From Flaccisagitta enflata (taxonomy: Eukaryota): DNA of 64,000 nt. Of the stretch, positions 18,767 through 62,631 are shown in pieces. The translations under genes were made by a program, and so were the position numbers. The stretch covers positions 45,570,001 through 45,634,000 of the forward strand of contig OZ231126.1 of the NCBI GenBank assembly GCA_965153355.1. The letters are read 5' to 3'. The number at the start of each line of letters is the position of its first letter. Positions within the stretch are counted from its first letter, which is position 1. The notes beneath the pieces were generated by a model. The model worked only from the letters and a program-made list of their open reading frames with translations. It searched no databases and had not been told where the DNA came from.

Positions 18767-18963
18767 ATACATGAATATTGCTAAAAATGAGCAGACACCA
18801 GTTAAGCTATGTACATCAAACTCATTTTGGTTTAGAGAAAAGTCGGGTTTTCAACAATAGATTTCAAGAACTTGACAAGTTACGTGTCTGGTTACTACTT
18901 ATACACATGCCGCAACCACGTCCATGGTAAAACTCGCAGGGTGGTTTTAAACGCTTTCTAATG

Positions 18964-19107
18964 CAGTCAAATACCGCTCTAACGGATCACAGGGACCAAA
19001 AAATTTTATCTGTCATAGGCGGAATTCTATTATAACCAATTGAGATTTAGTATCTGTTACAGGCGGGATTCCGTTAAAAGCGGAGCCGTTGGAGCGAGTA
19101 CAACTGC
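18964..19107. mobile_element. Small pogo/Tigger-like MITE; relatives at ~54820-54890, ~63312-63470 and ~63474-63659
   Basis: CAGT...CGCTCTAACGG / CCGTTGGAGCG...ACTG termini. Confidence 0.55.
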
Positions 19108-19706
19108 ACGACTAATCTGGGGTCGGTGGTTCATTTTGTGAAGGATCAACACTCCGTTTCAAAGTTTATGCTTTTCTTTTCAGGCTGGTAGAATTTTTTA
19201 GAAAAAACTACATATCATATAACTAGCAAGTATTTTCAGTGAATCACGACCACCTACAGACCTAAAAAGAAAATGAATTTATGGTAGATTTCGACCGAGT
19301 TAAACAGTTGATACAAACTTTATATCTACAATAACAACGATCAGGAAATTATGACGATACTGACAGAGTAGACTATTTACATTATCATTATCCATTTTTC
19401 TTCGCCATCCGGTCGCGTAGTTCAGTTGGAGGTTTTCGGCCGATGGATCTTCTTCACTGCCTCTCCGCCGGTTTTCCTCGCAGTTTTAGCGCCTGGTAAG
19501 TATTTTGCCGGAAAAATATTCAATGATTTACCGCTGCGGAATTCGCGCGCAACCGTGGCTGCATGTTATTAAAACATTAAGAAAAAAAATCACTGACCCA
19601 TGTTTTTTTTCTTTCTGATATGACTGTTAGAACCAGTTATCAAAGAGATACACAAGAATTGGATCAATCAAATCAGGGACGGGGATCTTAGAAAGACTCT
19701 TCCTAC

Positions 19707-20117
19707 CTTTTTTGTGATAGGTGGTTCACCAAATGCCTCGAGGACTCTATTGATGTCAATATTGTTCGGATTGAGATCCACTTCGGGTGGAATACTGGGT
19801 GGGGCAGTGCAGTCGTACAATGTGCAACCATTTTCATCTTGGCCAATCGCTACTGGCGCGGTTGGGGGATGACAATAGAATTTCTCCATCATCCATGCAT
19901 CATCCATGCATCCTTTGATACAGCCTCTGATCATGCAGTCACGTTCAGTTCTGCCTTGGAGTCTGTAGACATAGCCAACGGGACATCTGATGGTGGGTGG
20001 ACCCGCACAGCCAGGTCTGAGAGCCTCTGGATCTTCGGTAATCCATTCCTCCGGCCACTCATACTTGACCTCTTCCTCTTCCTCTTCCTCACCCTCTTCC
20101 TCTTCAAAATGAATTTC
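19707..20117 (-). CDS. 411-nt phase-0 Cys-rich exon (copy 2)
   Basis: Duplicate of 20869-21267 with an in-frame 12-nt insertion. All 8 Cys and both splice sites are kept. Confidence 0.85.
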
Positions 20118-20309
20118 CTGAAAGGTGTTTATGTTTATCATACTCATTTATCAAAATGATATGGAATTATGCCCACATTGGACACTCTGAATCACTCTTT
20201 GGCTATATCTGTTGGCTAGTGTCTTTGTCCGTCTGTTTGTGTGTGATACAGAAATAGTAAGATTGGACTTATAATTTGAATAATTAACTCAAAAGCCAAT
20301 CCAACTCAC

Positions 20310-20405
20310 CTTTTTAAGGATCGGAATCTCAGACAAGGCTTCAAGGCTGCTGTCAAAGTCAATTTTGGGTATGCTTAGTGGGACCTCAGGTACAGCACGC
20401 AGTTC
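20310..20405 (-). CDS. 96-nt phase-0 exon (copy 2)
   Basis: Duplicate of 21460-21555 with intact splice sites and the same peptide. Confidence 0.8.
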
Positions 20406-20868
20406 CTGGTAAGAATTTTTTGTGGGTCAATAAGATTTCAGAAAATGCTCCTTTGTACAAATTATAGCTCGTCAAATCTAATTAGTTTGTATAATTAACT
20501 TAAGTGACCTGATATTACTTAATATGACTTAAAATGACTTAGAATCATTAAGAGTGACTTAGAATGACTTAAAATGACTTAGAATGACTTGGAATGACTT
20601 AGAATGACTTCTAATGGCATTTGGGCAGGAGCTGTGAGTCCAAGAAAGTTAAAATCGCTGAAAAAGTACAGTACGATGGGAGCAAAGACGACCTAGACTG
20701 GAGGATAGATTTTAGGTATTTTAATTTCATTTGATTTATAAAGGAAATTGAGATCTATGCTAATTAAAGGTTGTTTGAATATGTTAGTTTTTCTCATTTT
20801 TCAACTTGTGACTTGACTTCATCGGAACTTCAAATCAGGGACGGGGATCTTAGATAGACTCTTCCTAC

Positions 20869-21267
20869 CTTTTTTGTGATAGGTGGTTCACCATATGCCT
20901 CGAGGACTCTATTGATGTCAATATTGTTCGGATTGAGATCCATTTCGGGTGGAATGCTGGGTGGGGCAGTGCAGTCGTACAATGTACAACCATTTTCATC
21001 TTGGCCAATCGCTACTGGCGCGGTTCGGGGAGGACAATAGAATTTCTCCAAATTCATGCATCCTTTGATACAGCCTGTGATCATGCAGTCACGTTCAGTT
21101 CTGCCTTGGAGTCTGTAGACATAGCCAACGGGACATCTGATGGTGTGTGGACCCGCACAGTTAGGTCTGAGAGCCTCTGGATCTTCGGTAATCCATTCCT
21201 CCTGCCACTCATACTTGACCTCTTCCTCTTCCTCTTCCTCACCCTCTTCCTCTTCAAAATGAATTTC
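20869..21267 (-). CDS. 399-nt phase-0 exon: poly-Glu spacer plus two C-x7-C-x15-C-x4-C modules (copy 1)
   Basis: TTTCAG| acceptor, AAG|GTAGGA donor, 8 patterned Cys, DENGC motif. Confidence 0.85.
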
Positions 21268-21459
21268 CTGAAAGGTGTTTATGTTTATCATACTCATTTA
21301 TCAAAATGATATGGAATTATGCCCACATTGGACACTCTGAATCACTCTTTGGCTATATCTGTTGGCTAGTGTCTTTGTCCGTCTGTTTGTGTGTGATACA
21401 GAAATAGTAAGATTCGACTTATAATTTGAATAATTAACTCCAAAGCCAATCCAACTCAC

Positions 21460-21555
21460 CTTTTTAAGGATCGGAATCTCAGACAAGGCTTCAAGGCTGC
21501 TGTCAAAGTCAATTTTGGGTATGCTTAGTGGGACCTCAGGTACAGCACGAAGTTC
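21460..21555 (-). CDS. 96-nt phase-0 exon ELRAVPEVPLSIPKIDFDSSLEALSEIPILKK (copy 1)
   Basis: TTCTTACCAG| acceptor, AAG|GTGAGT donor, open frame. Confidence 0.8.
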
Positions 21556-21828
21556 CTGGTAAGAATTTTTTGTGGGTCAAAAAGGTTTCAGAAAATGCTC
21601 CTTTGTACAAATCATAGCTCGTCAAATCAAATCAGTTCGTATAATTAACTTAAGTGACCTGATATTACTTAATATGACTTAAAATGACTTAGAATGATTA
21701 AGAGTGACTTAGAATGACTTAAAATGACTTAGAATGACTTGGAATGACTTAGAATGACTTATAATGGCATTTGGGCAGGAGCTCTGAGTCCAAGGAAGTT
21801 AAAATCGCTGAAAAAGTACAGTACAATG

Positions 21829-22580
21829 GGAGCAAAGACGACCTAGTCTGGAGGATAGATTTTAGGTATTTTAAATCTATTTGATTTATAAAGGAAATTG
21901 AGATCTATGCTAATTAAAGGTTGCTTGAATATGTTAGCTTTCCTCATTCTTCAACTTGTGACTTGACTTCATCAGAACTTCATTTTTCAACATTTTGACC
22001 TAGCCTATCTGATTAGGCAAAAAATCTTATATAATGTTTAAAAAAGGGCCAGATACACGGCTACCGAAGTAGCATGCGGGCGGGCAGGGGGCATATTTGA
22101 GGTCACCAGGCCATTTGGGCTGGAGCAGTGAGGTCAAAGAAATAAAATCATAAAAAAAGTAAAGTGTGACCGACCGACCAACCAACCTACCAACCAACGG
22201 ACAAAGCAGGTTGTAGAGTTGACTAAAAATCAGCTAAATTGGAATATTTTCACAGGTTCTACAGCTATTTGAAAAAAAAAAATTATGTAAATTGGTACCC
22301 AGGCAATGCTTAAAATAGGCATAAACCTGTAAAAATGGTCCAATTGAACTAATTCTTTTTTTCTGAATTATATAAAATCTTCTGCCCGATCTGATGAGCT
22401 AGGTTAAAACATTGAGAAATGACGTCTTGATGAAGTCAAGTTGCAAGTTGAAAAATAAGAGAAGCCAATTCATTCAAGCAATAGAGCAATATTTAATTAG
22501 CATAGATCTCAACTTTTTAATACTTCAAATGAAATTAAGATACTTAAACTCTATCCTCCAGCCTAGGTTGTCTTTACTCC
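21829..22580. mobile_element. Fold-back/MITE-like element with ~200-bp diverged inverted arms; family A copy nested at ~22045-22229
   Basis: 21829-22033 is the diverged reverse complement of ~22370-22580. Confidence 0.7.
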
Positions 22581-22604
22581 TATCTTACTTTAAATAGTCG
22601 CAAA

Positions 22605-24804
22605 AGGGTTAGATGATCAGCGGTACACATTGCCCATATGTAAGTATATGTATATATGTGATGGTAAGAGGGGCAGCAGCACCGAAGGGGCTGATGACCT
22701 ATGCTCAGTAAGTTTTGAGGATCAAGGTTCGAAAGTGAGCATCAACAATGAGATTTGAGCCTTGAGGCTGTGATTTGAGCCTCAAGGCTGTGATTTGAGC
22801 CTTGAGGCTGGAATTTGGGGCTTGAGTTTAGGATTTGAGCCTTGAGGTTGGGATGTGAGCCTCAAGGCTGGAAAGTTAGCCTCGAGGCTGGAATTGTTCA
22901 AAACATTGTATCCGTGACATCTTTAGTGAAAGATGGTTAGTGGTACCCATTGCCCCTGATATCATGCATTAATCTATTTTTCATATCAGATTCAAACTTG
23001 GTGTTAAAGGGATAAAGTAAGGGAGGTTGATGATTGAGATTTAAGGTAATGATCATAGGTCAGCAGGCCCCGAAAGCTCTGATGACCTATGAAAATTCAG
23101 GTCATATGCCTAACAGGTCACCCAAGGGCAACATGTGGTCAGCGATACCCATTGCCCTGCATTGCATGATTTTGAATTGGAGTAAGAGGAAGCAGGGCAG
23201 CGGCTCCAAAGGGGACGAAGTCCTGTAGAACACAGGGGGACTTTTGTTCGTCCGTCCGTCCATCGGTCCCCCCTAGGCTCTCACAAGCCTGACATCTGCC
23301 CTTTCAGGCCTGAAATCTACCCTCTCAAGTTTGAAATCTGCCCTCTAAGGCTTTGAATCTGAGAGGGCAGATTTCAGGCCTGGGAGGGCAGATTTCAGGC
23401 CTGAAAGGTCAGATTTCAGGCCTGAAAGGGCAGATTTCAGGCCTGAGAGGGCAGATTTCAGACCTGAGAGGGCAGATTTCAGGCCTGAGAGGGCTGATTT
23501 TAGGCCTGAGAGGATAGATTTAAGGGCTGAGATGCCAGATTTCAGGCCTGAGAGGGCAGATTTCAGGCCTGAGAGGACAGATTTTGGGCCTTAGAGGGCA
23601 GATTTGAGGCCTGAGAGGGCAGATTTCGAACCTGAGAGGGCAGATTTAAGGCTTGAGAGGGCAGATTCAAGGCCTGAGAGGGCAGATTTCAGGCCTGAGA
23701 GGGTGAACATCAGGTCTGAGAGGGCCTGGGGGGGGGGGGACAAACGCACGGAGGGACGGACAAACAAAAGTCCCCCTGTGTTCTACAGGACTTAGTCCCC
23801 TTCGGAGCCGCTGCCCAAAAGCTAGGATCTGAGCGTCAAGGCTGTTGTTTGGGCCCCAAGGCTGGATTTTGAGCCTCAAAATCGGGATTTTGGTCTCAGA
23901 GTCAGGATTTTGACCTCAAAATTGGGATTTGAGCCTCAGTGCCGGGATTTGGGCCTCAAGGCTAGAATTTGGGCCCCAAGGCTGGGTTTAAGGCTGGGAT
24001 TGGAGCCTCAGAATTGGGATTTTCGCCTCAGAGTAAAGGTTTTACTATTTGGGGTTTGGGCCTCAACGCTGGGTTTTGAGCCTCGAGGCTAGAGTTTGGG
24101 CCTCAAGACTAGAATTTGGGCCTCAAAGCTAAAACTTGGACCTTGAGGCTGGGATTTGAGCCTCAAAGCTTGGATTTTGGCCTCAAGGTAAAAATTAGCC
24201 TCAAGGCTAGAATTTGGGCCTCAAGGCTAGAATTTAGGCCTCAAAGTTAGAACTTGGGCCTGGGGCCTGGGCCTTGAAGCTTGAGTGATGGGACTTGAGC
24301 CTTGGGGCTGTGAATGGAGTCTTAAGGCTTGGATTTGAACCTTTGGGCTGGGGTAGGGGTCAGCAGGCTAGGCTTGGTCAGCAGGCCCCAAAGGACCCGA
24401 TGACACAAATCCCAGTCTAAAGATTCAAATCCTAGCCCCAAGACTCAAATCCCAGTGTTGTGCCTCTAGGCTTGAGCTTGAACTTGGGCCTGGAGGCTGG
24501 GATTTGGGCCTGGAGGCTGGGGTTTTGGTCTCAAGGCCGGGATGTGGGCCTTGAGGCTGGGATTGGGCCTCAAGGCTTAAATTTGAGCCTCAAGGTTGGA
24601 AATTAGGCCTTGAGGCTGGGATTTGAGCCTCAAGGCTAGGAAGCCTAGGATATGGGTCTTGAGGCTGGGATTGGGGCTTCAATGCTGGGATATGGGTCTC
24701 GAGGCGGGGGGGGGGGGGGCAACAAAGAAGAAGAAGGAGGAGGAGAAATTTCTGCTTATGTGAAAGCATACGTCATCGGCCCCTTCGGGGTCGCTGCCCA
24801 AAAA
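22605..24804 (-). mobile_element. Nested family B elements (outer B2 subtype, inner copy 23111-23820) with 21-bp arrays
   Basis: Paired IRs at ~22671/~24800 and ~23194/~23816. GAGCCTCAAGGCTGGGATTT and CAGGCCTGAGAGGGCAGATTT arrays. Confidence 0.8.
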
Positions 24805-25233
24805 GGGACCAACCGACCGACCAGCCGACCAACCGACCAACCGACCAACCGACCAACCGACCAACCGACCAACCGACCAACCGACCAACCGACCAACCAA
24901 CCGACAAAGCGGGGTGTAGAGTCGCGTAGCACGCAGCTAGAGAGAAAGGCTTACATTTGTTACAATATGCAAACGCATGTGAACAGTAAGTTTAATAGAG
25001 GACAACACAAGGCTGGATATACAGGTTAGCCAAGTCGCGTGCGGGTGGGCAGGGGCAGTGATATTAAAGATTAACCAAGCAATTGGGCAGGAGCAGTGAT
25101 GCAAAAACAGCCCATAAACATAGAATAGGTGTCACCGGCCAACTTACCGATGGACATATCGGGTTATATAGTCGCTTGCATGTGACCAATTTTTTTTTTA
25201 CTTTTAACCAGACCCATCAATTCATAGTTTTAC

Positions 25234-25344
25234 CCTCTCAGCAAAATGACCAAATGCTTCCAAGACGGAACGTAGGTCAGTGCGAAGTACCGCGCTTTGG
25301 GCGCCAACGCCGAGCAAAACCAAAATGAAAAGAGACGCATACAT
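25234..25344 (-). CDS. Exon 1 of secreted Cys-rich precursor: MYASLFILVLLGVGAQSAVLRTDLRSVLEAFGHFAER (signal peptide)
   Basis: AAAATG start, hydrophobic core ending AQS, phase-0 donor AGG|GTAAAA. The VLEAFG motif recurs in the downstream exons. Confidence 0.75.
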
Positions 25345-25846
25345 TTTGAGCTGCGCGAGATGTTTGACGCACGTTTAGACATACAGATGTGTACCGTGAA
25401 TGTCTGATAGCCAAGACTACATTTCGCTTTTATACCAAATCTCAATACGAATAGGTTCCCGTGTTTGCTCGAGGAAATGATTAGGATTCATTTCGCGGTT
25501 AAATGCCGGCTATTTAGCAGAATTCGTTGATCCAAGGATATGAGACATCTAATGTGATTTTGGTTTTTTCGCTTTGTTTACTTGGTAACTTCATCCGTAG
25601 AAGTTATTTTGACCAACTGATCGCCGAAGAGTAATTTTTTTTCTTAGACTGGAAAAGAAAATTTGTGCATTCGTTGAGAGGCTGATCCGACGCTCAAATA
25701 GAGGCGGCCGGCCCCAATTTTCGCGTTGTTAAGTCAATAAAATGCAACAAAAAATACAAGACTGTTTGACCATTTCAATTCTTTGCATACAAAGGGTTAT
25801 CGTTGATACCACAACTAATGTTGCTCTCCAGCTTTTTTTCTTATTC

Positions 25847-28800
25847 TTTTTGGGCAGCGGCTCCAAAGGGGTTGAAGTCCTGTAGAACACAGGGAGAATC
25901 TGTCCGTATGTACGTACAAACATATGTCCGTCCGTCTGCCCGTCCCCCCCCCCCCCGCCGCCCCTTCCTCAGGGCTTCGTCTCCTTTGGGGCCTATTCTG
26001 ACCCAAATTCTGCTAAATAGCTCAAATCCAAGCAATATGGCCCAAATCTAAGCAAAATGACCCAAATCCAAGCAAAATGGCCCAATTCTAGCCAGAAAAC
26101 TCAATTACTATCTTTGCCAAAAGAAACGCGACACCCTAGCAATGATATGATTTATTGACCATACTCCTACAAAATTAAGTAACTGAGAGAGTTTGGAGGT
26201 CAAGTAAGTTATTTTCATAAGAAATAAACGAGACTGTGAGTCTAAGATGCAATTTATATCGCATTTCTTCATTAACAGAGGCGATAACCTTTTCTCATTT
26301 GTCCACAATTTTTGCAAGCCTATGATTTTTTAAAAAGGTTTACTCTTTTGCTTGCCATTTCTAAACGGCTTGAGCTACAGAATCCAGATTGCGCCCACCT
26401 TTTAGATTTTTTAATGTAGATTAATTTGCTTTTTTGGAAAAAGTATCTAGCTTCTCCAGAAGCTAAGATAACAAAAGTTGAAGTCATATGAAATTTGATC
26501 TATTCTTTTATTTCACAATTTTTTATCAATTCTGAAAATGACTATTTTCCTTCTTCTGCTTGCCATTTTTAAACACTTTAAGATACAGTGACCAGATTGG
26601 ACTCATTTTGTAGATCTTTAGAAGAAGAATAATTCCTTTTTGGGCAGCGGCCCCAAAGGGGCCAATGACCTATGCTCTCATATATGCAGAAATTTCTCCT
26701 TCTCCTTCCTCTTCTTTGTACCCCCCCCCTCGAGGCCCAATTCATAGCCTCGAGGCTCAAATCCCAGCCCCGAGGCTCAAATCCCAGCCTCAAGGCTCAA
26801 ATCTCAGCCTCGAAGCTCAAATCCCAGCCTTGAAGCTCAAATCCCAGCCTTGAAGCTCAAATCCCAGCCTCAAAGCTCAAATCCCAGCCTTGAAGCTCAA
26901 ATCCCAGTCTTGAAGCTCAAATCCCAGCCTCCAGGCTCAAATCCCAGCCTCCAGACTCAAATCCCAGCCTCCAGGCCCTAATCCCAGCTTTGAGGCTTAA
27001 ACAAAATCAGCATAGGTCATCGGCCCCTTCGGGGCCGCTACCCCACTAACTTCTAACCACCCACATACACTCATATACGGGCAACGGGTACCGCTGACCA
27101 TCTAACGCTTTTGCGACTATTTTTGGGCAGCGGCCCCGAAGGGGACGAAGTCCTGTAGAACACAGAGGGAATCTGTCCGCCCGTCCGTACGTCCGTACGT
27201 CCCCCCCCGCCCCACCCTCGGCTTCGTCTCCTTTGGGGCCCAATTCCAAACTGTATGGCCCAAATCCGAGCAAAATGGTCCCAAAATTGGCCAAATCCAG
27301 TCAAAATGGCCTAAGACCAGGTAAAATGGGCCTTATGTGGCTAGAAAAGAGATAGTCCGCCAGCGAATTTGGGGGTGTTCATCAACGGGGAATGAACGCA
27401 TGTTGCTGAACAATGCCATAGAGCTGTTCATGAACGACTAAAAAGAGGCTCTTGGCAAACAATTTTGTTCATGGAGGGCCTAAAAAAACATGTTCATGAA
27501 CGACCGTTCATTGAGGGGTAAAAAAAGCCATTGCTGAACAAGTAAAAAAAAACACTCCACCAATGGTTTTGTTGGTGGAGTGGGTTTTTTACCTGTTCAT
27601 GAAAAATGCTCATCTGGCTGTTAAAGAACAGCAAAAAAAAGTTTTTTGATGAACAGTTTTCAGCATCTAGTTTAATCTAACAAAGAGTTCATTAAGGAAA
27701 CTTTTTTGACTCTGCATGAATGGCTGGGTCAAAAGATATTTTGTTAGAGATGAAGTGATCTTGGGACTATGTTCATCAATACTGCTTCTTGGCTGTTCAT
27801 GAACAACAAAATTTCATTGAGTGGATAAAAATCCAGTGAATGAGTGAACCTTTTATGGGCACATATGAAGGAGATTTTTTTTGCCATAACTTGACACTAT
27901 CTTCATAATTCTTAAACCATAAATGATGCTCATCTGGCTGTTCATGAAATACCAAATTTTACCTTTTGATGAACAGCTTTGTTCATTGATTAGATAAATG
28001 TTACAGTGAAGACTGAAGATGATACACATTGGGTATGAAGATATTTTGTCATAAGTGGAGTTAATTACCACTCAACCAACAAAGTTATTTATGGAGTGAA
28101 TTTTTAGCAATTCATGAACGCGTTTTTTATGGCCCTCTCTGAACAAAATTGTTGGCCAAAGGTCTCTTTCATTGTGTTCTTCAACACCTGTATGGCATTG
28201 TTGCTGAACAGGCGTTCATTCCCCGTTGCTGAACGCACCCAAATTCGCTGGCGGACTACCTGCTAGAAAACCTGAATTCTGGCCTGAGTTCTATCATCTT
28301 GGCCCCTTAAACTTAGATTCTGGCTCCAAAAACCCACTTCCAAGCCTTAGAGACCCAGATCCTGCCCTTTGGGACCCAGATTCTGACCTCCAAGACCTAG
28401 GTGCTGGCCTAAAAGACCTGAATCCTAGCCTCAGAGGACCAAATCCTGACCACAGAAACTGAAATCCTTGCCTCTGAGACCAAGAAATTGGTCTCTGAGA
28501 CCCAGATTCTGGCCTCAGAGACCCAGATCCTGGCCTGCTCCTGCCTCAACTTAACCTACAAACTATACAAAAATGGCAAGGGTACTATTGTCCATATGCT
28601 GCCTTTTGTCAGTTCTCCTTGATATTCAATGAAAATTTGAATAACAGGGCATCCTGGACAGAAGGAAGGCAAACAGGACGGATGGACGGACGAACAGATG
28701 GACGGAAGGACAGATTCCCCCTGTGTTCTACAGGACTTTGTCCCCTTCGGGGCCGCTGCCCTGCTCCCTCTCAACCTTCATCACTTCCTACTCAAGCAGG

Positions 28801-29253
28801 GCACGGGTACCGCTGACCACTTACTGCCTTTGGGCTGCTATTTAAAAGTATCTAGCTTTTCTAGAAGCCAAGATATTCTAGATAGAAGGTGTCGCGTTTC
28901 TTTTGACGAAGATAGTACTGGCCTGAGGTCCATCATTTAGGCCCAATAAACCTATATTGTGGCTTCTAACACCTAGATTCTGACCAGATTTGGGCCATTT
29001 TGCTTGGATTTGGCCCATTATGCTTAGATTTGGGCCATTTTGCTTGGATTTAGGTCATATTGCTTGGGTTTGGGCTTATTGGCAGAATGGACGGACAGAC
29101 AGACAGATGGACAGACAGACGGACAGATTCCCTCTGTGTTCTACAGGACTTCATCCCCTTAGGGGGCCGCTGCCCTGCTCTCCCTCAACTTAAATCATAT
29201 ACTACTTAAGCAGGGCACGGGTACGGCTGACCATTTATCGCCTTTGGGCTGCT
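25847..29253 (+). mobile_element. Russian-doll cluster: outer family B element containing B2 (26637-27120) and B (27120-28843) copies
   Basis: IR arms at 25852, 26642, 27125 pair in nested order with arms at ~29170, ~27043 and ~28761. The outer arms carry inverted GGCCCAAATCCAAGCAAAAT arrays. Confidence 0.75.
27355..28256. mobile_element. TA-flanked MITE with ~150-bp imperfect TIRs
   Basis: TA|GTCCGCCAGCGAATTTGGG ... CCCAAATTCGCTGGCGGAC|TA. Confidence 0.85.
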
Positions 29254-29760
29254 ATTTTTTCTTGGCTCTTTTTTTCTTTTTTTACTTTTTTTTGTGTTTT
29301 TGAACGTTTTGAGCTCACTGATTCTGCCCACCCGCACGCGACGAGTGTAGCCGTGTATACGCTTGTTACTTTCCACTTGAGAATCCATGGATCTCTGAAA
29401 AACAAGGACAACCCTTTACAGTCGCGTGCGGTTGTTAAAACCTTTAGACCAAAAGACTAAGATACTAAATGTAAATTGACTTAAATCAACTTTAAATAAC
29501 TTAAAAGCACTTAAAATGACTTAAAATGGCGTAAAACGTCGAAAAAAAGCTTAGCGTTACCGACCAACCGACCGACCGACCGACAGACGGACAGAGTGGG
29601 TTGTAGAGTCGCGTGCACGCGACTAAAAAAACCGCGGCCCAGGAATAAGAATTGATTCATATTCTTTAAAGAATTGAAATTTTTTTCTTTTTCGATTTGA
29701 ATTCGTTTTTTAACTGATATGAGATTATTGCAAATAATCGCCGATATGATCGCCGCTGCA

Positions 29761-30847
29761 ACAGCCAAGGCAACTGCCAATGAGACTGCCAATGCAACTG
29801 CCAATGAGACTGATTATGCAACTGCTAATGTGAAGGATGATGTAACTTCCAATGCAACTGCCGACGCAACTGCCAATGTGAAGGATGATGAAACTGCCAA
29901 CAAGAATGCCAATGCAACTGCCAATGCAACTGCCTATTTGACTGCCTATATGAAGGATAATGAAACTGCCAATGAGACTGCCAATGCACCTGCCAATGCA
30001 ACTGCCAATGTGACTGCCAATGAGACTGCCAATGAGACTGCCAAAGCAACTGCCAATGCAACTGCCAATGTGACTGCCAATGTGACTGCCAATGCAACTA
30101 CCAATGCAACTGCCAATGTGACTGCCAATGCAACTGCCAATGAGACTGCCAATGCAATTGCCAATGTGACTGTCAATGAGACTGCCAACGATGCTGCCAA
30201 AGCAACTGCCAATGTGACTGCCAATGCGACTGCCAATGTGACTACCAATGCGTCTGCCATTGTATTGGTAAGGAAACTGCTAATGCGACTGAAAATGCGT
30301 CCAACGTTTCCGCCGTTATGACAGCCAAGGCAGCCAAGGCAACTGCCAATGAGACTGCCAATGCAACTGCCAATGAGACTGATTATGCAACTGCTAATGT
30401 GAAGGATGATGTAACTTCCAATGCAACTGCCGACGCAACTGCCAATGTGAAGGATGATGAAACTGCCAACAAGAATGCCAATGCAACTGCCAATGCAACT
30501 GCCTATTTGACTGCCTATATGAAGGATAATGAAACTGCCAATGAGACTGCCAATGCACCTGCCAATGCAACTGCCAATGTGACTGCCAATGAGACTGCCA
30601 ATGAGACTGCCAAAGCAACTGCCAATGCAACTGCCAATGTGACTGCCAATGTGACTGCCAATGCAACTACCAATGCAATTGCCAATGTGACTGTCAATGA
30701 GACTGCCAACGATGCTGCCAAAGCAACTGCCAATGTGACTGCCAATGCGACTGCCAATGTGACTACCAATGCATCTGCCATTGTATTGGTAAGGAAACTG
30801 CTAATGCGACTGAAAATGCGTCCAACGTTTCCGCCGTTATGACAGCC
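29761..30847. repeat. 12-bp minisatellite (ACTGCCAATGCA/GAG/GTG) arranged as two ~520-560-bp higher-order copies
   Basis: Visible 12-bp units. The second block duplicates the first, including its unique tail. Confidence 0.95.
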
Positions 30848-31218
30848 ATGCGGCACTGCTGCGGCATGCAGTTAAAGTCAATGTACCCGCCGAGGTAAGT
30901 TGGTATTCACAATTGTAAAACACCCTCTACTATATTGAGACAAAATGAAATCTCATCATTCATCATTCATCCATAACGACCATACGTCCTAAGTTTTACA
31001 GGTTCTTACCACCTTTCTTTATTCGCGTGCACGCGAATCTACACCCCGCTTTGTCTGTCCTTCTGTCGGTTGGTTGGTCTGACTGTCGGTCCATCACACT
31101 TTACTTTTTTATCAATTTTATTTCCTTAAGTCATTTTAAGTCATTCTATGTCATTCTATGTCATTCTAAGTCATTATGTGAGCCTTGCACGCGACTTATA
31201 GGTGTTGGCCTTGCTTTT

Positions 31219-31306
<88 letters not shown>

Positions 31307-32007
31307 TCATTCTTTCTTTCTTCTCTCCTTTCTTTCTTGTTTTCTTTCTTTCGTTCTTGTTTTCTTTCATTTGTTTTCTCTCTCTCTCTTTCTTTCATTA
31401 TCTCTTTCTTTCTCTTCTTACTTTTTTGATTCCTGCTCGCTTGCTCGCTTGCTTGCATGTTTTCTTTTTTTTTTCTTTCATTCTTTATTTCTTTCTCTTC
31501 ATTTTCTTCTTACGCTTTCAATGTCTTTCTTTCACTTTTTTTCCCTTTTTACGCCCTCCTCACTTTTTCCTGTTTTTAGTTGCGGACACGCAACTCTATA
31601 AGAGGCTTTGTCCGTCCATCCGTCCGTCCGTCGGTCCGTCACGCTCGAGTTGAAAACGCAAGAAACACGCATTTACAATGCTGCAGTTGTCATTGAATGT
31701 GTGTGGTTGTAAGTTAGTGTGTGGGAAGGGGGTTTGGGTGAGGCTGGGGGTTGGTTGCCCCTGCCCACCCGTCCGCAACGATATTGTGACCCCGCGTCAC
31801 TTGTTGATTTCTCACTTCCTTCTCCTTTTCTTCCTCCGAATTTCAAGCCGTCAGCGCGGAATTTTCGAGATTGACGCTTCTTCTGCGCCGCTGGTTGCTT
31901 TCCGCTCATAAATGACCTCTTCACCTTCATTATCATACCTTGGCAGCAACGGAGAAACACACATGGAGAAAGCGAGAGGAAAACAGTGAGAAACCTTGAA
32001 AGAATGA

Positions 32008-36915: not shown

Positions 36916-38221
36916 GAGACACAGAGACACAGAGACACAGAAACACAGAACCACAGAGACACAGAGACAAAGAGAGCTAAAAGTAAGCTTACAGATAGAC
37001 CGATAAACAGAAAGTGATAGAGACAAAGCCAGGGAGAGGCTGGGTTTCTGGTTCATTATTGCGAAGAGGGAGGATAATAGGTGTCCATTGAAGAGAGGGA
37101 AAGAAAAGATATTCATCGGAAGGAAAAGTAAGCAAAATTTTCGCTTGACAGAGAGATTGATCATGTCAGAAGCGTTTAGGCCGGAACAAACGGTAAGCAT
37201 GGTACGAGCTTTGACAGCTGACGCCTCTTATTCCTTATGATGCTGTTTCCCAACTCGAAAACCCTGTCACGATTTCTTTTTGTATCTCTATGAACCCACT
37301 ACTTCGTATATTTTACCCACTTATCCATTTTCAATCGCTGGTAGCATTGCCATCTTGTCTCTTCGATTTTCACTTACGGCGCTCTATATCACTGTACTAT
37401 GGTGTGAGTTGATAAAATTTTCAACCAGAAGGTATCGCTTAGGCACCCATGAATCATGAATAACAAAATAAAAAACATGCGAAATTCCAATTGGATAACA
37501 TAACAAATCGACAAATGAATGATCAGAATATGAAATTCCTATTTAATAACATAGGCCCTCTTCCAGTTATTTTAGTTTGGGTATAGTGAGGGATGTTGTT
37601 CCACCTATCATAGAAAATTGACAAGAAATCAAGTAAGAGCTAAACTCCCATTGAATATCATGGAAAATTGCTCAAAAAGCCCAAAAAATGCATATCCTGG
37701 ACGGAAGGAGGTACTTAATTTTTGCTCCTGTGTTCTACAGGACATCGGCCCTTTGGGGGCCGCTGCCCTGTTCTCACTCTACTTCTTCAGCTAATTACTC
37801 CAAGCAGGGCATCGGGTACCGGCTACCATGTGCGATCCTTTGATGACTAGTTTTCAATTCTTACCCCGTCCTAAAGCAGTAAGCATCCCATCTCGTTGCC
37901 CCCCGTCGTGGGCGCTTTGATCTTCCCCCAAATTCTTCGCGTTGAAGGGTGAAGGATTGACAGTAACGAGATTCTGACGAAGTCGTGAATCAGCAAACGG
38001 ACAAAACTTCCATGAATGACGAACGAAACTTCCCCCCCCCCCAAAAAAAAAAAGAAAAAAAGAAAAGAAAAAGCAACCCCAAATTTAATGGAAAATCAAA
38101 AAAGTTGTGCATCTCATGGTTCATGCTTCACGTGGGTATGTTTCTCTCCAAGGCAGTTTCTACGCTTTTAAGGTTTTGTTGGAAAATGGGAAAATTGCAG
38201 AAAAACATACTAGTCCAAGTA

Positions 38222-39528: not shown

Positions 39529-40062
39529 TATTAAAACAAGGCCGGATACACGGCTACCCCAGTCACGTGCGGGTTGGCAGGGGCCATGTTTGAGCACACC
39601 AGAGCATTTGGGTAGGAGCAGTACGGTCAAAGAATAAAAAACATAAAAAAGTAAAGTGTGACCGACCAACCGACCAACCGACGGACAAAGCGGGGTGTAG
39701 AGTCGCGTACCACGCGACTAAAAAATGATCGCCCTCATAACGTTCGAAATTAGGATATGAGTTATCTTCAGTCCTATCAATACAACCGAATTTTTCGTAA
39801 TCTTTTAGCTTTTTACGCGTCCTATTAGATGACCTTTGTTACATTTGACTCGCTATTAATGTACCCTTTGAAACCTGGACGTTAAAAAAAGGATAATAAA
39901 GGGGCAAAAGGAAAGAAGAAAAAAAAGTCATCTGATGTACCATACTTAAGAAAAGGTCGAGCGCTTTTGCAAGTGACCAAAAGTGGCCAAATTGAGGAAT
40001 TGATTAATCATTAGGTGGAAGATAAGGAGGAAGAGAAATGAAGAAAACGCAGAAGAAACGCC

Positions 40063-46242: not shown

Positions 46243-46466
46243 CCGCGTCCCGCTTTGATTCCCATACCTTCAAGCCACCCTTTAGTTAATTAGGACTCAA
46301 TCCCTCATTTTACTTTGTCACTTGTTCTCGTCATCCCTTCACCCATGCCGCGCACTTATTCTGACATTCTTCATCCAATGATTCATTTGCCTTTTCTAAC
46401 ATGTCATGTCCAAGTCATGTTTAAAGTGTCACAATTTTGTTAGTCAATAGTCACTGGGTCCCCATT

Positions 46467-46974
46467 TGTGCCCGCTCGCTCCCTTTCTTACTAACCGGAG
46501 TAGTAGTGACGACGCAATTAACGGTCTGAAATAATTTATTAGCAATCATTAGTAATCATTAACAATGAGCAGTAATAATTGGCAATCATTAGTACATCAA
46601 TTTACTTCTGTACAAAGCTTAGTACCTGAAACTTCAACTCATTTCGGCATTCAGGGAACCAGAGGGTAAGTAATGCTAATCAATTCATCATTAATCTGCA
46701 AAGGATGGAAAAAGAGTAACATTAGTAGGCTTATTTACTCCTAATCGCGAATAAACAATGAGAGCGAAGGAATAAAGACGAGCGAATGGACTAAACAGCA
46801 GGTAAACGCTCTTATAAGGAAATTCTCTTGGCATGTATCATCAATTCCAGCTTAGTTTCCGTTCGCTTCGAAGCGGTGAACTATTAATAGAGGGCGCTAC
46901 TAAAAGGTAAGTTTTTAGAGGCAAAGTAAGGTCTTAAAACAAATGAACAGTGCTTGCTCACGCGAGCCCGCACA
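46467..46974 (-). repeat. 3' LTR (508 bp)
   Basis: Copy of 51834-52341, preceded on the minus strand by the PPT at 46975-46983. Confidence 0.95.
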
Positions 46975-46983
46975 CCCCCCACC
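46975..46983 (-). promoter_or_regulatory. Polypurine tract (PPT)
   Basis: Minus-strand GGTGGGGGG immediately 5' of the 3' LTR. Confidence 0.8.
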
Positions 46984-47002
46984 TGGACTGTAAAACATGT
47001 CC

Positions 47003-47786
47003 AGCGCAAGCATGAGAAATCGTAAGCGCAAGCATGAGAAATCGTAAGCGCAAGCATGAGAAATCGTAAGCGCAAGCTTGAAAGCGTGAAAGTCAAAGGC
47101 CAAACTTGAAAGCATGAATGCAAAAGGCCAAACTTGAAAGCATGAATGCAAAAGGCCAAACTTGAAAGCATGAAAGCAAAAGGCCATACTTGAAAGCATG
47201 AAAGCAAAAGGCCAAACTTGAAAGCATGAAAGCAAAAGGCCAAACTTGAAAGCATGAAAGCAAAAGGCCAAACTTGAAAGCATGAAAGCAAAAGGCCAAA
47301 CTTGAAAGCATGAAAGCAAAAGGCCAAACTTGAAAGCATGAAAGCAAGGCCAACCCTGAAAGCATGAAAGCAAATAAAACTTGAAAGCATGAAAGCAAAG
47401 ACACAAACTTAGCAAAAGGCCAAACTTGAAAGCATGAAAGCAAAAGGCCAAACTTGAAAGCATGAAAGCAAAAGGCCAAACTTGAAAGCATGAAAGCAAA
47501 AGGCCAAACTTGAAAGCATGAAAGCAAAAGGCCAAACTTGAAAGCATGAAAGCAAAAGGCCAAACTTGAAAGCATGAAAGCAAAAGGCCAAACTTGAAAG
47601 CATGAAAGCAAAGGCCAAACTTGAAAGCATGAAAGCAAAGGCCCAACTTGAAAGCATGAAAGCAATAAACTTGAAAGCATGAGCAAAGGCCAAACTGAAA
47701 GCATGAAAGCAAAAGGCCAAACTTGAAAGCATGAAAGCAAAAAGGCCTAACTTGAAAACATGAAAGCAAAAGGCCTAACTTGAAAG
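47003..47786. repeat. Minisatellites in the LTR element's 3' non-coding region: 22-bp unit x3, then 28-bp unit AAAAGGCCAAACTTGAAAGCATGAAAGC x~25
   Basis: Directly visible tandem units. The 28-aa periodicity of the ORF translations confirms the 28-bp unit. Confidence 0.95.
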
Positions 47787-48641
47787 GTAGAGCATCGCAA
47801 TGCCTGAAATAATTCTCTTTATCTTATCAAATGTTTTTGAGAATCATTTACCCATCCTACTTTAAAATGAAAAGATGGCGAGGGAAAGATTGGGGCAGTC
47901 ACGATTTTAAAGAGGGGAAAATTCCATTCAAACAAAAGAGAATTAACCAAAATCAAATTCTTTAACTTGAGTAGTTGTTGACTCAAAATCTTTGTCAACA
48001 ATAGGGAAAAGATAAATGTAAGCATCGTAAACTTCAGGGTAGTTGTTGACGCAAAATCTCTGCCAACAAGAGTAAATGTACATGAAATCTAATCCTTTTT
48101 TTTCATGAACGTAAGAAAAAGCTTACAAGCATCATTAACTTCAGGGTGGTTGTTGATACACAAATCAACAATAGAAAATTACTCGGGATCGTCTCATGGA
48201 TAGAGTAATCGTCAAAAGGGGAATAATGAAAATTACATTCAAAAATGATACTCTCTTGAGCATCAAAACGTAAAAATTTAAAGCACCTCTAACTGCATTG
48301 TGTAGTAGATGCAAAGAAAAAGCTTGAAACTTAAAAATGGAAAAAGTAAGCGTCATTAATCGCAATGTAATTGTTGACACAATCAAGACTTTTCCCCCTC
48401 CTACCCCCCACGTCCTTCATTCCATGTAAATCTAACCCAAAGAACCAATGCCCGACGGCGAGTTGCAGTTGGAGAGAGTAGGAAAAGGTCGTAGGAGCGG
48501 AGGTGTAGCAGAATCGTTGACGCGTAAACTCGTACTAGAGCAGCGTGCAGGAGCGTCGAATTGTATCATATCATCAGGGCTTATCACTGAAGCCATATTT
48601 CTTATCATAACGGCGTTGCTCTTTTATCACTAGAGCAGCTT

Positions 48642-48839
48642 TCATTGAGACTTGAGGCACATTTCACGTCGGCAAATTCGAAGTATAAATGCAAAATCAA
48701 TGAGAGCATGAACTAACTGACGAGAAAGAGCTAAAAAGAGTGAGAGTATAAAGAGTAACAATCTAAATGTTATCACCAAAACGGCGTCTTCTTTTACGTC
48801 GAATTGAGCGAAGTAGCTGAAGATAAACATTGGACTCAT
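48642..48839 (-). CDS. Small hydrophobic ORF (65 aa) overlapping the long ORF's stop (ATGA)
   Basis: ATG overlaps the TGA of the long ORF. Hydrophobic stretch AVLVITFRLLLFILSLFLAL. Confidence 0.3.
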   Translation of the reverse strand: MSPMFIFSYFAQFDVKEDAVLVITFRLLLFILSLFLALSRQLVHALIDFAFILRICRREMCLKSQ

Positions 48840-50558
48840 TTCTCACTTTTTCTCCCAGCGTCGGTAGCGTAATCGGAAGGCCCGTGACATCGTTGTCGCG
48901 GGAAAAGGCTTGGGGTGGCGGCCGGGAATCTCGTAGGGTGGCGGCCGGGAATCTCGTGGGGTGGCGGCCGGGAATCTCGTGGCTGTGAAGCGTGATTGAG
49001 GCCCGTAGAAGCGTGATTGAGGCCCGTAGAAGCGTGGTTGTGGCCCGTAGAAGCGTGGTTGTGGCCCGTAGAAGCGTGGTTGTGGCCCGTAGAAGCGTGG
49101 TTGTGGCCCGTAGAAGCGTGATTGATTTTCGAGTGGAGACGGAGAATTCTTTTCTTTCTTCTTTTTCTCCTCCTGGACTCGAACTCGTAACGTCGAAGAC
49201 GCGGCTTTTTCTTTTCTTTTCTGGCATAGAAAAGTTGAAGGCGTAAAAATCTTTTCTTTCTCTTTTTTGCCCTCGCGTAAGTCTTCTCGTCGCAAAAATC
49301 TTGACGATGGGTCCCTCCAAAAAAGGAGAGAAAAGGAAAAGCTTTGCAGTTTCCAGATGACGACGGACGGCCGTCAGATGAATCTTTGCCGTCTGCAGAT
49401 GAATCTTGACAGTCTGCAGATGTTCGACGGTCGAAAGAAGAAGCTTGGTAGTCTGTAGATGACGTCAACAGATGATTGACGGATGTTTGGCAGTCTACAG
49501 ATAACGACCGACGATCGAAGGTGAAAGCTTGTTCATTCACAGATGATACTTGGTGGTCTTCAGATGATGACTGAAGATGAAAAGAAGAAACTTGGATGTC
49601 TTCAGATGACGACGGACAGTCGTCAGATGATTCTTGAGGGTCTGCAGATGATGACCGGCGGTCAACAGATGAATCTTGGTAGTCGGCAGATGTTCGATGA
49701 TCGATAGAGGAAGCTTGGTAGTCTGTAGATGATGTCAACAGATGATTGACGGAGGCTTGGCAGTCTACAGATAACGACCAACGATCGGAAGTAAAGGCTT
49801 GTTCATTCGCAGATGATTCTTGGTTGTCTTCAGATGATAACTGAAGATGAAAAGAAGAGACTCGAGTGTCGTCAGATGACGACAGACGGCCATCAGATGA
49901 TTCTTGGCGGTCTGCAGATGATGACCGACGGTCGACAGAATAAGCTTGGCGGTCTGTAGATGATGTCAACGGATGATTGACTGAAGAAGCTTGGTGGTCT
50001 ACAGATGATGTCGACGGACGTGGACGGTCGATCAAAGAGGCTTGATAGTCTGCAGATAAATTCGTAACAGATGTCGGCTTAATCTTGGCAGGTGCCGGCG
50101 GAATCTTGGCAGGTGCCGGCGGAATCTTGGCAGGTGCCGGCGGAATCTTGGCAGATGACGGCAAATTTGTGAGAGATGCCGACAAAATCAAAAACGTAGA
50201 TGAGGAAGAAGATGAATCGTAAAGAAGAGGCTCGTCAGAATGATGAACAGGACGTGAAGGAAGAGAAAAGTTAGTGGCAGTGAGAAGCTGATTTTCTTCG
50301 TTGATCGATGGACATGGGACTGGAGGCACTTCCGGTTGTGAGGCGGTCATGCTTGAGACGTCGAAGGTTTCTTTTCCTTCCTTCTTCCTCTCTTTCACTC
50401 CAGATCTTTCTTTTCCCTTTCTCTCCATCGTCAACATGAATTCGTTCATCTCCTCCTTAATCTTGATCATAATGTTGCCAATTTTCTCACTATCTCCGTC
50501 CATCATGGCTTCGAAGATATCGTCCAATTCATTTTCCGTTGCCTCTTCCAATTCCGAT
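48836..50558 (-). pseudogene. C-terminal part (~573 aa) of the orphan ORF: charged helical region, Ser/Asp-rich ~90-aa repeats, basic NLS-like clusters, HASTGHN repeats
   Basis: 1.7 kb stop-free frame, in frame with the upstream part once the 50559-50937 insertion is removed (F-T-M-K|S-E-L-E-E). Confidence 0.7.
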
Positions 50559-50937
50559 TTTTAGTCGCGTGCACGCGACTCTACAACCCGCTTTGTCGGT
50601 CCGTCCGTCGGTCCGTCGGTCCGTCCGTCCGTCGGTCCGTCCGTCCGTCCGTCACACTTTACTTTTTTGTACTATAACGTCAACTCTTAGGTCATTTTAA
50701 GTCATTTTAAGTCATTTATAGTTATTCTAAGTCATTTTGAGTCAGTCTAAGTCATTTTAAGTCATTTTAAGTCATTTTAAGTTATTTTAAGTTATTTTTG
50801 GTTTTTTGTTTTTTTAGTCATTTTAAGTCAATTTTGGTCATTTTAGGTCATTCTAAGTCATTGAAAGTCATTCTAAGTCATTCTAAGTCACTCTTTGTCT
50901 GAAAGTCTCGCACGCGACTTATAGGTGTTGGCCTTGT
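50559..50937 (+). mobile_element. Helentron/DINE-like non-autonomous element (family A) nested in the LTR element's ORF
   Basis: TTTTT plus 18-bp palindrome AGTCGCGTGCACGCGACT, (GTCC/GGTC)n, 10-bp AAGTCATTYT array, subterminal GCACGCGACT and GGCCTTGTT end. Confidence 0.85.
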
Positions 50938-51698
50938 TTCATCGTAAAACGGAAATTCATTTCTTCATCCAATTTCATAATTTCTTTTATTTTTCTTTCT
51001 AGTCTTTGAAACAGCGACTCTCTTCTTTCTTCTTCGTCGTTGTTCAAATTGGATTCCAAGTGAGTGGCAAGGAGATCCAAATGAAGAGGACGATGTTGAT
51101 TTTCCGTCAATGCCTTGTGCGCGACTCGGCAATCGACATCACCACCGCCTCCAAAGCTTTCGCCGCCACCATCAACACCGCCGCCTCCACCATCGAGAAC
51201 GCCGCCGCCGCCGCCATTTCTCAGACTGATGTCAACACCACCGCCACTTTCATCCTCCTGGCCATTCATCGTCGTAGTGGCATGAGGCTCTTGCTCAGTG
51301 CCGAAGGCAGCGTCGTAGAGGAAAAGTTTTGGTAAATGCATCAAACAAAATGGCGACTGTCCATTAATAAAACGGCGTGTCTCTTCTAAAAGGAGGCGAT
51401 AAGGCTCGATGATGACATAGAAATATTCCCACAACGCGTAGGAAATGTCTTGAAGCTGCAGCGTTACAACGGCGTAGCTGATGGCGTTGTTAGCTGCGCA
51501 AAAAAGCTGATAGATTTCTTGGGTTGTCTCCGGCGATCGCGTAAATGCGGAGAGGAGAGAATCGTAAAGTAGTTGATAGATGGCAGGAAGCTGATGCCGA
51601 TCCATCGCTTGGTGGACGTGACTCTTGACGCCCATAGTTGAGTCGGCTGTAATCGGTTCCGACTTTGAAATTCCGAGGACGTGACTCTTGACGTCCAT
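50938..51698 (-). pseudogene. N-terminal part (~254 aa) of the LTR element's orphan ORF, truncated by a nested insertion
   Basis: Non-repetitive helical-looking protein (LPAIYQLLYDSLL...LWEYFYVIIEPYRLLLEETRRF), then a Gly-rich linker and charged segment. The last 5 residues of the ORF-track call (QGQHL) come from the inserted element. Confidence 0.7.
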
Positions 51699-51820
51699 CG
51701 TTACGTCGGCGGGAATCGGTTCCGACGTTAAACTTCAGAGGACGTAGCTCTTGACGTCCATCGTAACATCGCCACCAATGACGTCAGCGGGGCTCGGCGC
51801 CGACGACGATCAGCGAAGCG

Positions 51821-51833
51821 ATGAGTTGAAGCT
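51821..51833 (-). promoter_or_regulatory. Primer-binding-site position holding a non-tRNA tract complementary to the element's own LTR
   Basis: Minus strand reads LTR|AG CTTCAACTCAT with no TGG. It is the exact complement of minus-strand ATGAGTTGAAG inside the LTR (51999-52009). Confidence 0.65.
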
Positions 51834-52341
51834 TGTGCCCGCTCGCTCCCTTTCTTACTAACCGGAGTAGTAGTGACGACGCAATTAACGGTCTGAAATA
51901 ATTTATTAGCAATCATTAGTAATCATTAACAATGAGCAGTAATAATTGGCAATCATTAGTACATCAATTTACTTCTGTACAAAGCTTAGTACCTGAAACT
52001 TCAACTCATTTCGGCATTCAGGGAACCAGAGGGTAAGTAATGCTAATCAATTCATCATTAATCTGCAAAGGATGGAAAAAGAGTAACATTAGTAGGCTTA
52101 TTTACTCCTAATCGCGAATAAACAATGAGAGCGAAGGAATAAAGACGAGCGAATGGACTAAACAGCAGGTAAACGCTCTTATAAGGAAATTCTCTTGGCA
52201 TGTATCATCAATTCCAGCTTAGTTTCCGTTCGCTTCGAAGCGGTGAACTATTAATAGAGGGCGCTACTAAAAGGTAAGTTTTTAGAGGCAAAGTAAGGTC
52301 TTAAAACAAATGAACAGTGCTTGCTCACGCGAGCCCGCACA
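51834..52341 (-). repeat. 5' LTR (508 bp)
   Basis: No differences from 46467-46974 on manual comparison. Imperfect terminal IR TGTGCCCGCTCGC/GCGAGCCCGCACA. Minus-strand TATAAG near 52178-52183 and AATAAA at 51902-51907. Confidence 0.95.
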
Positions 52342-53418
52342 CCATTTCTGGACACTGGACACGTCCCTCACCTCCTTAACTCTCCCTTTCATACTCCCAG
52401 AGATTCCATCACTGCTTATTCCTCAACACTCCTAAGTACACCTCTACCTTTTCTTTACCACAACCATGATAATCCCACGCTTTCCCCCTTCCCCACTTCG
52501 TATCTTTAACGATTGTAATTTTTAGACGTGGGCACGCGACTCAACAACCTGCTATGTCGGTTGATAGGTCGGTCGGTCAGTCGGTCAGTCGGTCCGCTCT
52601 GCGACCCCTCTTTGCGGCATTCTATGAAAAGTGGAACAATATCCCTCACTATACTCAAACTGAAATAAATGGAAGAGGGCCTTGTGAACCCTAGTTCATG
52701 GGCGCACCACTCCTAGGTTCCCATAATCTGAAAAACATTCTTTGTAAATATAACCCAAAAAAACAAACTGCTTATCAAAACTGAGACAAAAGAAATTAGG
52801 GGCAAAGGATTGATACCTGTGTAACCAGTGCACCACTATATACCCTTTTCCGTATCTTTGTTTGGTCGTTGATGGTCTTCTCCTTCTGCAGCATCCTGTC
52901 GTCAGCCTCCCTGAACCCTCATCCTCCCCATTCCGCACCTCTACGCCGTCCTTGATGATTTCCCCTCCTGCGGCACCCTGTCTTTGATCCTCTTACATCT
53001 AACACCTCCACCTACCACGTTCCACAGTTCTGCTACGTCGTTGAAGGTCTCCCATCTTTGCAGCACCCTGTCATAGACCCCCTTTCCTCCCGATCCACAT
53101 CTATCCATCTCGTTCCGCACATCTACCCCGCCGTTGATGTCCTCCCCTGTTCCGTGGCACCCTGTCTTCGACCTCACGTGACTGTGACCAGAAATCGGGG
53201 CTGAAATGGTTGAATCACGTCATCAGATCCCAATTCGCCAAAAAGATCAGTTTCACCCTTCACCCACATTTTGCCGCTTCCGTTTACCTCCTCCTCTTTC
53301 TCCTCCTCCTCTTCCTCCTCTTCCTCCTCTTCTCGTTGTCTCCCTCGTCCGACGCCTCTCATGAAATGCCTATGATGCATCGACAGTAAATCCGACTAAG
53401 TCTGCGACGTACTGCATT

Positions 53419-62413: not shown

Positions 62414-62631
62414 TTTTTAGTCGCGTGCACGCGACTCTACAACCCGCTTTGTCGGTCCGTCCATCCGTCGGTCCGTCGGTCCGTCCGTCCGTCCGTCCGT
62501 CCGTCACACTTTACTTTTTTGGGTTTTTGCGGTCTTTGGCCTCACTGCTCCTGCCCAAATGATGGAGTGGTCTCAAATATGGCCCCTGCCCACCCGCACG
62601 CGACTTGGGTAGCCGTGTATCCGGCCTTGTT
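62414..62631 (+). mobile_element. Family A Helentron/DINE-like element, reference copy. Others at ~1804, 3336-3792, 7935-8073, 8405-8557, 12895-13095, 22045-22229, 29420-29629, 31020-31215, 31573-31806, 39535-39725, 43478-43675, 45782-45908, 62651-62822
   Basis: 5' palindrome, GTCC microsatellite, 3' subterminal GCACGCGACT plus GCCG..CGGC hairpin, T-rich ends. This matches the established DINE-1/HINE layout. Confidence 0.85.

Follow-up and report, generated by a model that had tools for sequence, protein, structure and literature searches.

A long open reading frame split by a repeat insert in a Flaccisagitta enflata LTR element without recognizable gag or pol

We describe a long terminal repeat (LTR) element in a 64,000-nucleotide stretch of Flaccisagitta enflata DNA (GenBank assembly GCA_965153355.1, contig OZ231126.1, positions 45,570,001 to 45,634,000 of the forward strand), which we call the window and in which positions are counted from the first letter. 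The element lies on the minus strand (5,875 bp, 46467–52341), in the same sense as two open reading frames (ORFs) located between its LTRs. We find that these two frames are the halves of one gene, and that the element is non-autonomous, with no protease, reverse transcriptase or integrase in it. The joined ORF fills 2,484 bp of an internal region of 4,859 bp. The explanation that best accounts for our data is a young, non-autonomous LTR element that is self-primed and whose ORF specifies a Gag-like adaptor, and we give this explanation as a whole about an even chance. The element is a parasitic mobile element of an unusual but not unprecedented kind.

One gene in two halves

Half 1 of the gene is an ATG-started ORF of 259 amino acids (51698..50922, minus strand), of which 254 codons belong to the gene proper (50937..51698). 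Half 2 is a stop-free minus-strand frame of 574 codons (50560..48839, with the stop codon extending to 48836; 556 amino acids from its first ATG), which is read in a different frame from half 1. The halves are separated by a 376-bp repeat insert (50561–50936) of a family that we term family A. A sequence-only reading of the window had proposed this layout and had predicted that the frames would join in uninterrupted copies, and both points are borne out. P0001, a protein called on another contig, crosses the junction and includes the first 56 residues of half 2 (...NFRFTMKKSELEEATE...). It is among four relatives of half 1 found on ∼1.1 kb contigs when 5.8 billion proteins were searched through a word index, and none of the 7,999 scored candidates yielded a longer relative. 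Uninterrupted copies also exist as DNA. When contigs from public runs were aligned to positions 47790–52450, one contig in X1 (a DNA run labelled with the organism) and one in X3 (a marine metagenome) joined 50560 to 50937, skipping exactly 376 bp, with 2 bases fitting either side of the joint. In natural uninterrupted copies, the site consists of six consecutive T on the plus strand (two Lys codons), where the sequence-only reading had expected three T; the whole ORF is thus 828 codons long (254 + 574) and not 827. An AlphaFold helix predicted for residues 202–254 of P0001 (predicted local distance difference test (pLDDT) scores 65–80) spans the junction at 233/234, so the insert appears to split a single structural unit. 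Since its ORF is interrupted, the copy in the window can make at most the first 254 residues followed by 5 from the insert.

The insert contains perfect 10-nt subterminal inverted repeats (50563–50572 and 50910–50919), a 16-nt palindrome at one end, and a (GTCC)n microsatellite with 10-bp tandem repeats in its center. Comparison with the empty site in X1, X3 and P0001 places the insertion inside a T-run, with no clear duplication. HINE/DINE-1 elements, which are non-autonomous Helentrons, are characterized in the cited account by subterminal inverted repeats, a terminal palindrome, central repeats with a microsatellite, and T-runs (PMC4067079). The insert shares these features and the insertion into a T-run, and it differs from that account in the length of its subterminal repeats, which are 10 nt and not 13 nt. 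By these sequence features, we class it as a HINE/Helentron-like non-autonomous element, probably oriented on the minus strand as judged from its palindrome end. At least 10 further family A left ends in the window are each preceded by a T-run (TTTTTAG.CGCG), in agreement with the five T proposed earlier for this end; the TT proposed for the right end draws on very few copies, because the window holds a single further right end. Family A is extremely abundant in the organism's DNA run, with a summed contig depth of up to 19.3 million in X1 compared with thousands for the LTR element. Further family A fragments in the window are located at 62414–62521, 52518–52596, 39684–39724, 31605–31640, 31018–31216, 29567–29629, 24900–24927, 12897–12929, 8601–8666, 8407–8474 and 8025–8073.

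The predicted protein and its possible role

The N-terminal part of the protein (residues ∼18–121) is predicted to fold into a four-helix bundle (pLDDT 66–81). It is followed by a Gly-rich disordered stretch and by a predicted helical hairpin with a duplicated KIKE..EEMN..TM motif, the long helix of which starts in half 1 and is completed in half 2. The remainder of half 2 comprises Pro-rich PAKIPPA heptads (21 bp, 3.9 copies), ∼250 Ser/Asp-rich residues that include a 90-residue repeat (270 bp, 2.0 copies), a basic block (residues ∼655–734) with 30 Lys/Arg in 80 residues and a net charge of +24, and a C-terminal end composed of His/Ser/Thr/Gly heptads (HASTGHN; 21 bp, 6.6 copies) and a Pro-rich tail. 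The repeated motif on both sides of the junction, the Gly linker, the PAKIPPA and 90-residue repeats, the basic clusters and the HASTGHN units listed in the sequence-only reading are therefore all present, and the reading was likewise right in finding no enzyme or zinc-knuckle signature: a six-frame pattern search for CCHC, YxDD, protease D[ST]G and integrase HHCC motifs gave no match, and Pfam was empty. With both halves as query and E values up to 1, Pfam returned one sub-threshold, low-complexity match (E 0.051; 14.4 bits compared with a cut-off of 28.1). Another 41 stop-to-stop segments of at least 45 residues, from the six-frame translation of the internal region, gave two chance-level matches (E 0.017 and 0.022), and none of nine family members matched a GAG, protease, reverse transcriptase, RNase H or integrase family in Pfam.

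We propose that the element borrows protease, reverse transcriptase and integrase from another element, and that the ORF product would be its own particle or RNA adaptor, Gag-like in its working though not recognizably Gag. The N-terminal bundle and the long hairpin could mediate self-association, the long acidic, disordered stretch would serve as a spacer, and the basic C-terminal block (30 Lys/Arg in 80 residues) may bind nucleic acid. The retained protein would in this way allow the RNA of the element to enter the particles of its partner. The ORF product may be a very diverged Gag; from the modelled domains, we regard a Gag-like role as quite possible, if somewhat short of an even chance.

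Several results speak against this proposal. The best VIA match to the N-terminal domain has a Z score of 9.3, below the caution line of ∼13 for helical folds, and the matches are generic helical bundles (Mrs2, the CNOT3 N terminus, GAT, syntaxin Habc, spectrin and BAG) with no capsid among them. Foldseek searches of the PDB and BFVD returned no match at E ≤ 0.001, and no zinc knuckle is found in the six frames. No autonomous partner was found in Joint Genome Institute (JGI) metagenome contigs, in which a peptide-pattern scan gave 117 pattern matches and no relatives. The modelled N-terminal domain is thus a generic helical bundle with no positive sign of a capsid fold, which is also the outcome of the structure search that the sequence-only reading had called for. 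The best ESM Atlas match (0.89, to helical tethering-complex clusters) is below the 0.9 bar and is a lead only, and a two-copy complex prediction for residues 172–289 of P0001 scored 0.00, which is informative neither way. To our knowledge, the Gag of Tf1 has no zinc knuckle. Two kinds of match were discarded: a lectin, the single match in a PDB sequence profile search (E 0.058), and six loci in the JGI contigs that contain a 19-nt word from the LTR end and share nothing beyond that word.

Alternatively, the gene could be accessory or captured (an 'additional ORF'), derived from an autonomous ancestor or from the host, with a product that acts on the host in nuclear import, silencing or chromatin. 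The missing Gag, capsid and zinc-knuckle signals would be in line with this, as would the long disordered acidic and basic repeats and the Lys/Arg clusters, which resemble nuclear localization signals. Varied lineage-specific extra ORFs, kept in most copies and with no assigned function, are on record in plant and rotifer LTR elements (PMC7264820, PMC5408684). In these reports, as far as they are cited here, the extra ORFs accompany gag-pol, whereas the ORF in our element stands alone, in the gag position directly after the leader. Moreover, if a non-autonomous element has a protein under selection, the simplest explanation is that this protein benefits the RNA of the same element. We favor the Gag-like adaptor and consider an accessory gene rather unlikely.

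Reading-frame conservation

The frame of the ORF is free of stops in each of three segments, compared with 4–28 stops per segment in the other five frames. In the 394 non-repetitive codons (254 + 140), there are again no stops compared with 4–19 in the other frames. Tandem repeats within the ORF have periods of 63, 21, 42, 270 and 21 bp, all of them multiples of 3, and those elsewhere in the element have periods of 28, 22, 10, 4 and 2 bp. Within the ORF, only the last 60 codons depart from this pattern, with a 23-bp repeat whose unit is read in three frames, so these ∼60 codons are probably under no protein constraint. The repeat maps to 48911–48982 and has 3.1 copies.

Relatives of the protein share 87, 75, 73, 73, 66, 42 and 33% sequence identity with it, and copies that are 33–91% identical retain the frame. 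When a profile was searched exhaustively against 1.84 billion cluster representatives, only four of these matched at E values up to 0.001, among them the 33% relative P0007 (E 1.4e-7). P0008 matches half 2 in frame at 57% identity; it has extra PAKIPPA units and an in-frame gap of 12 residues. As judged from these alignments, the family is narrow, yet it appears to be fairly old: its members have diverged widely and can still be aligned as protein.

The lists of differences among the aligned public-run contigs cover 40 of 215 substitutions, 12 of 29 insertions and deletions, and 15 of 404 joints. One of the 12 listed insertions and deletions falls in the ORF and adds 3 nt, 10 are changes of 1–2 nt in the ∼1 kb that follows the stop codon, and one is in the LTR. 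Three of the 15 listed joints lie inside the ORF: two with net lengths of 36 and 376 nt, and a third that skips 96 nt and may contain unknown letters. Of the listed substitutions, 18 map to the 1,049 nt downstream of the stop codon (47790–48838) and 21 to the 2,484-nt ORF. The latter are distributed over codon positions 1, 2 and 3 as 7, 5 and 9, with 8 of them synonymous, and three adjacent ones co-occur and amount to one codon change. Visual comparison of the duplicated KIKE..EEMN..TM motif shows synonymous differences between its copies. We take these comparisons as moderate evidence for purifying selection on the ORF. Some caution is warranted, as the signal comes from the listed sample of differences, proteins called on contigs are biased toward open copies, and much of half 2 is low-complexity repeat.

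These reservations bear on the view that the ORF is functionless and was kept open by recent amplification from one open master copy, in-frame tandem repeats seldom creating stops. Tandem repeats account for more than half the length of half 2, a single 23-bp unit runs through all three frames within the last 60 codons, and the signal from 8 synonymous changes among 21 listed substitutions is weak. In addition, the LTRs of the copy in the window are identical although its ORF is disrupted; the element may therefore be able to do without an intact one in cis. Expression, for which the sequence-only reading had asked for RNA evidence, gave no support either: among ∼12.2 million polyadenylated RNA reads from the same organism (∼6% of the run), none mapped to the ORF or LTR at 90% likeness, and reads touched only the (GTCC)n microsatellite part of the insert. 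A functionless ORF is, however, disfavored by 394 non-repetitive codons without a stop, by relatives that align as protein down to 33% identity, by the 12-residue gap of P0008 that leaves the frame intact, and by motif copies that differ at synonymous sites. We consider it unlikely and retain the adaptor as our preferred reading of the ORF.

Anatomy, priming and relatives of the LTR element

A self-BLAST of the window identified a direct repeat of 511 bp (46466–46976 and 51833–52343, 5,367 bp apart) whose copies are 100% identical. The LTR unit within it measures 508 bp and has TG..CA ends (5′ LTR, 52341..51834; 3′ LTR, 46974..46467; minus strand). An independent inverted-repeat scan located a 13-nt terminal inverted repeat (85% complementary; 51834–51846 and 52329–52341) exactly at the inferred LTR ends. 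A target-site duplication, AATGG, is found as the 5 bases before the TG of the 5′ LTR (52342..52346) and as the 5 bases after the CA of the 3′ LTR (46462..46466). The 3′ LTR is adjoined by the polypurine-like run AGGTGGGGGG (46975..46984), a short G-run with 9/10 purines. Long direct repeats, TG..CA with inverted termini, a target-site duplication within the 4–6-bp range and a polypurine tract, which are structural hallmarks of LTR retrotransposons, are thus present. Because of the TG..CA units, the AATGG copies on their outer sides, the inverted termini and the G-run, we read the locus as a single LTR-element insertion in the sense of the ORF, and we are highly confident of this anatomy. The plus strand was rejected as the element's sense, since the G-run, the ORF and the TATAA (52183–52179) upstream of AATAAA (51907–51902) in the 5′ LTR all fit the minus strand. 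Zero differences between the two LTRs suggest that the insertion is very young.

The 13 nt that directly follow the 5′ LTR (51833..51821), where a primer-binding site (PBS) is expected, lack a TGG and so are probably not of the tRNA 3′-end type. ARAGORN, run on the window, found no tRNA gene there. These 13 nt pair over their full length with LTR positions 333–345 (52009..51997), forming 12 Watson-Crick pairs and one G-U pair. Such 13/13 pairing was seen in none of 5000 shuffled LTRs and in one of 4846 13-mers of the internal region, which is the site itself, and the 223-nt stretch forms the stem in its minimum free energy fold and in its centroid fold. Pairing of the PBS with upstream RNA of the element itself marks self-primed reverse transcription and is described for Tf1, Tj1 and related Tf1/Sushi elements of hosts that range from fungi to vertebrates (PMC4600332, PMC6317226, PMC6934838). 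Our element resembles these in apparently lacking a tRNA-type PBS and in the pairing of the PBS position with an upstream LTR segment; it differs in that they are autonomous, whereas it has no pol and the paired segment is only putatively the 5′ end of its RNA. If that segment does form the 5′ end of the transcript, and hence the start of R, the element would be self-primed in the manner of Tf1/Sushi-type Ty3/gypsy elements. On this model, transcription would start near 52009, and the enzyme donor would be a partner from the Tf1/Sushi group. Complementarity makes Tf1/Sushi-like self-priming plausible, and we regard the question as evenly balanced.

Some observations weigh against the explanation. 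The 223-nt leader fold is unexceptional overall (z −1.86; 9 of 200 shuffles are equally good), and the sole TATAA lies ∼170 nt upstream of the complementary segment, where a start is unproven. The metatranscriptome X16 contains few contigs, at depths of 2–6. A 562-nt contig among them (51740–52274; depth 5.8, 17 differences, 7 gaps) derives from a diverged copy, in which it reaches from U3 across the leader, and begins upstream of both candidate start sites, so the X16 contigs may be DNA or read-through RNA.

At the start of half 1, 2.5 in-frame copies of a 63-bp repeat (51614..51771) contain the start codon. Every repeat bears an ATG in good context. Copy 1 has an in-frame TGA (51737–51735), whereas the relative P0002 has three repeats of this type, all open and in frame. 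Just upstream is the perfect palindrome TGACGTCA (51779–51786), which resembles a cAMP-response element. Downstream of the ORF, a non-coding region (47787..48835) has no Pfam match in any frame and harbors most of the listed short insertions and deletions. It is followed by 22-bp and 28-bp minisatellites (47003..47786; 26.4 copies of the 28-bp unit in a tandem-repeat scan), which run nearly to the polypurine run and across which three minus-strand frames are open.

Parts of the stretch are contained in 20 runs from 10 studies, mostly marine metagenomes. In X1, the LTR has summed contig depths of 12,000–31,000, 3–6 times those of the ORF and the non-coding 3′ part (∼3,600–17,000). From these depths, we conclude that the element is multi-copy with extra LTRs, although summed depths are not copy numbers and we claim none, the flank being repetitive. 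A 334-nt contig in X1 spans the LTR/flank junction of this very copy with a depth of 96 and no differences. Were this contig single-copy, the summed depths would point to tens of internal regions and a few hundred LTRs. However, the flank upstream of the 5′ LTR (52344–52450) is repetitive in X1 (bin depth 8,984), and the element is therefore nested in another repeat. The sequence-only reading had envisaged a parasitic LTR family that keeps its own non-canonical gene. This stands insofar as the family is LTR-bounded, lacks gag and pol, is multi-copy and is conserved in frame; the functions proposed with it are conjectural.

Among non-autonomous LTR elements, a distinction is made between those without coding capacity (TRIM, LARD) and those with a retained Gag (TR-GAG). 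Plant TR-GAG elements, as the cited work presents them, have LTRs and a single ORF with a GAG domain but no pol enzymes, and are termed 'semi-autonomous' (PMC13570524). Our element likewise lacks pol and has one ORF, placed where gag would be, between its LTRs. It departs from that description in having no GAG domain detectable by Pfam or fold, in its 828 codons and long repeats, and in its marine eukaryotic host. LARDs are described in the same source as non-autonomous LTR elements of >4 kb that have lost their coding region, and one is reported from a chaetognath, a marine animal (PMC2997562). The element described here is also non-autonomous and exceeds 4 kb (internal region 4,859 bp); by these accounts, however, the internal domain of LARDs is non-coding, whereas our element family retains a conserved ORF. 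Were our explanation true, parasitic retroelements could retain or invent an adaptor protein of their own, alongside a self-priming signature. If the protein is a very diverged Gag, this would be no more than a TR-GAG-type element in a marine eukaryote, a type rarely described outside plants. The LTR ends and the PBS pairing provide a concrete handle for locating the enzyme donor.

It is also conceivable, if improbable, that an element devoid of gag and pol evolved or captured an unrelated protein, with which it would hijack the particles of a self-priming Tf1/Sushi-type partner or blunt host silencing. That the locus is not one retroelement at all, but the product of a segmental duplication, or a host gene lying by chance between two separate LTRs, could be argued from the missing tRNA-type PBS, pol and partner; it is highly improbable given that the 5-bp duplication is confined to the outer ends, that TG..CA and the inverted termini fall on the same bases, that the inner LTR edges show PBS-position complementarity and a G-run, and that the internal region is multi-copy with even depth.

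The surrounding window is repeat-rich and gene-poor, with 17 tandem arrays scoring ≥300. Twenty other ORFs in it gave low-complexity Pfam matches only, and Rfam gave no match in the window at the gathering score. The segment 52620–52682 resembles 37553–37615 (90%). A tandem duplication at 19671–21306 consists of two units ∼1,162 bp apart, with ORFs of ∼150–159 residues open on both strands and no Pfam match. Two arrays of one 154-bp repeat (3789–4181 and 4793–5186), with 2.6 copies each, are located ∼1 kb apart.

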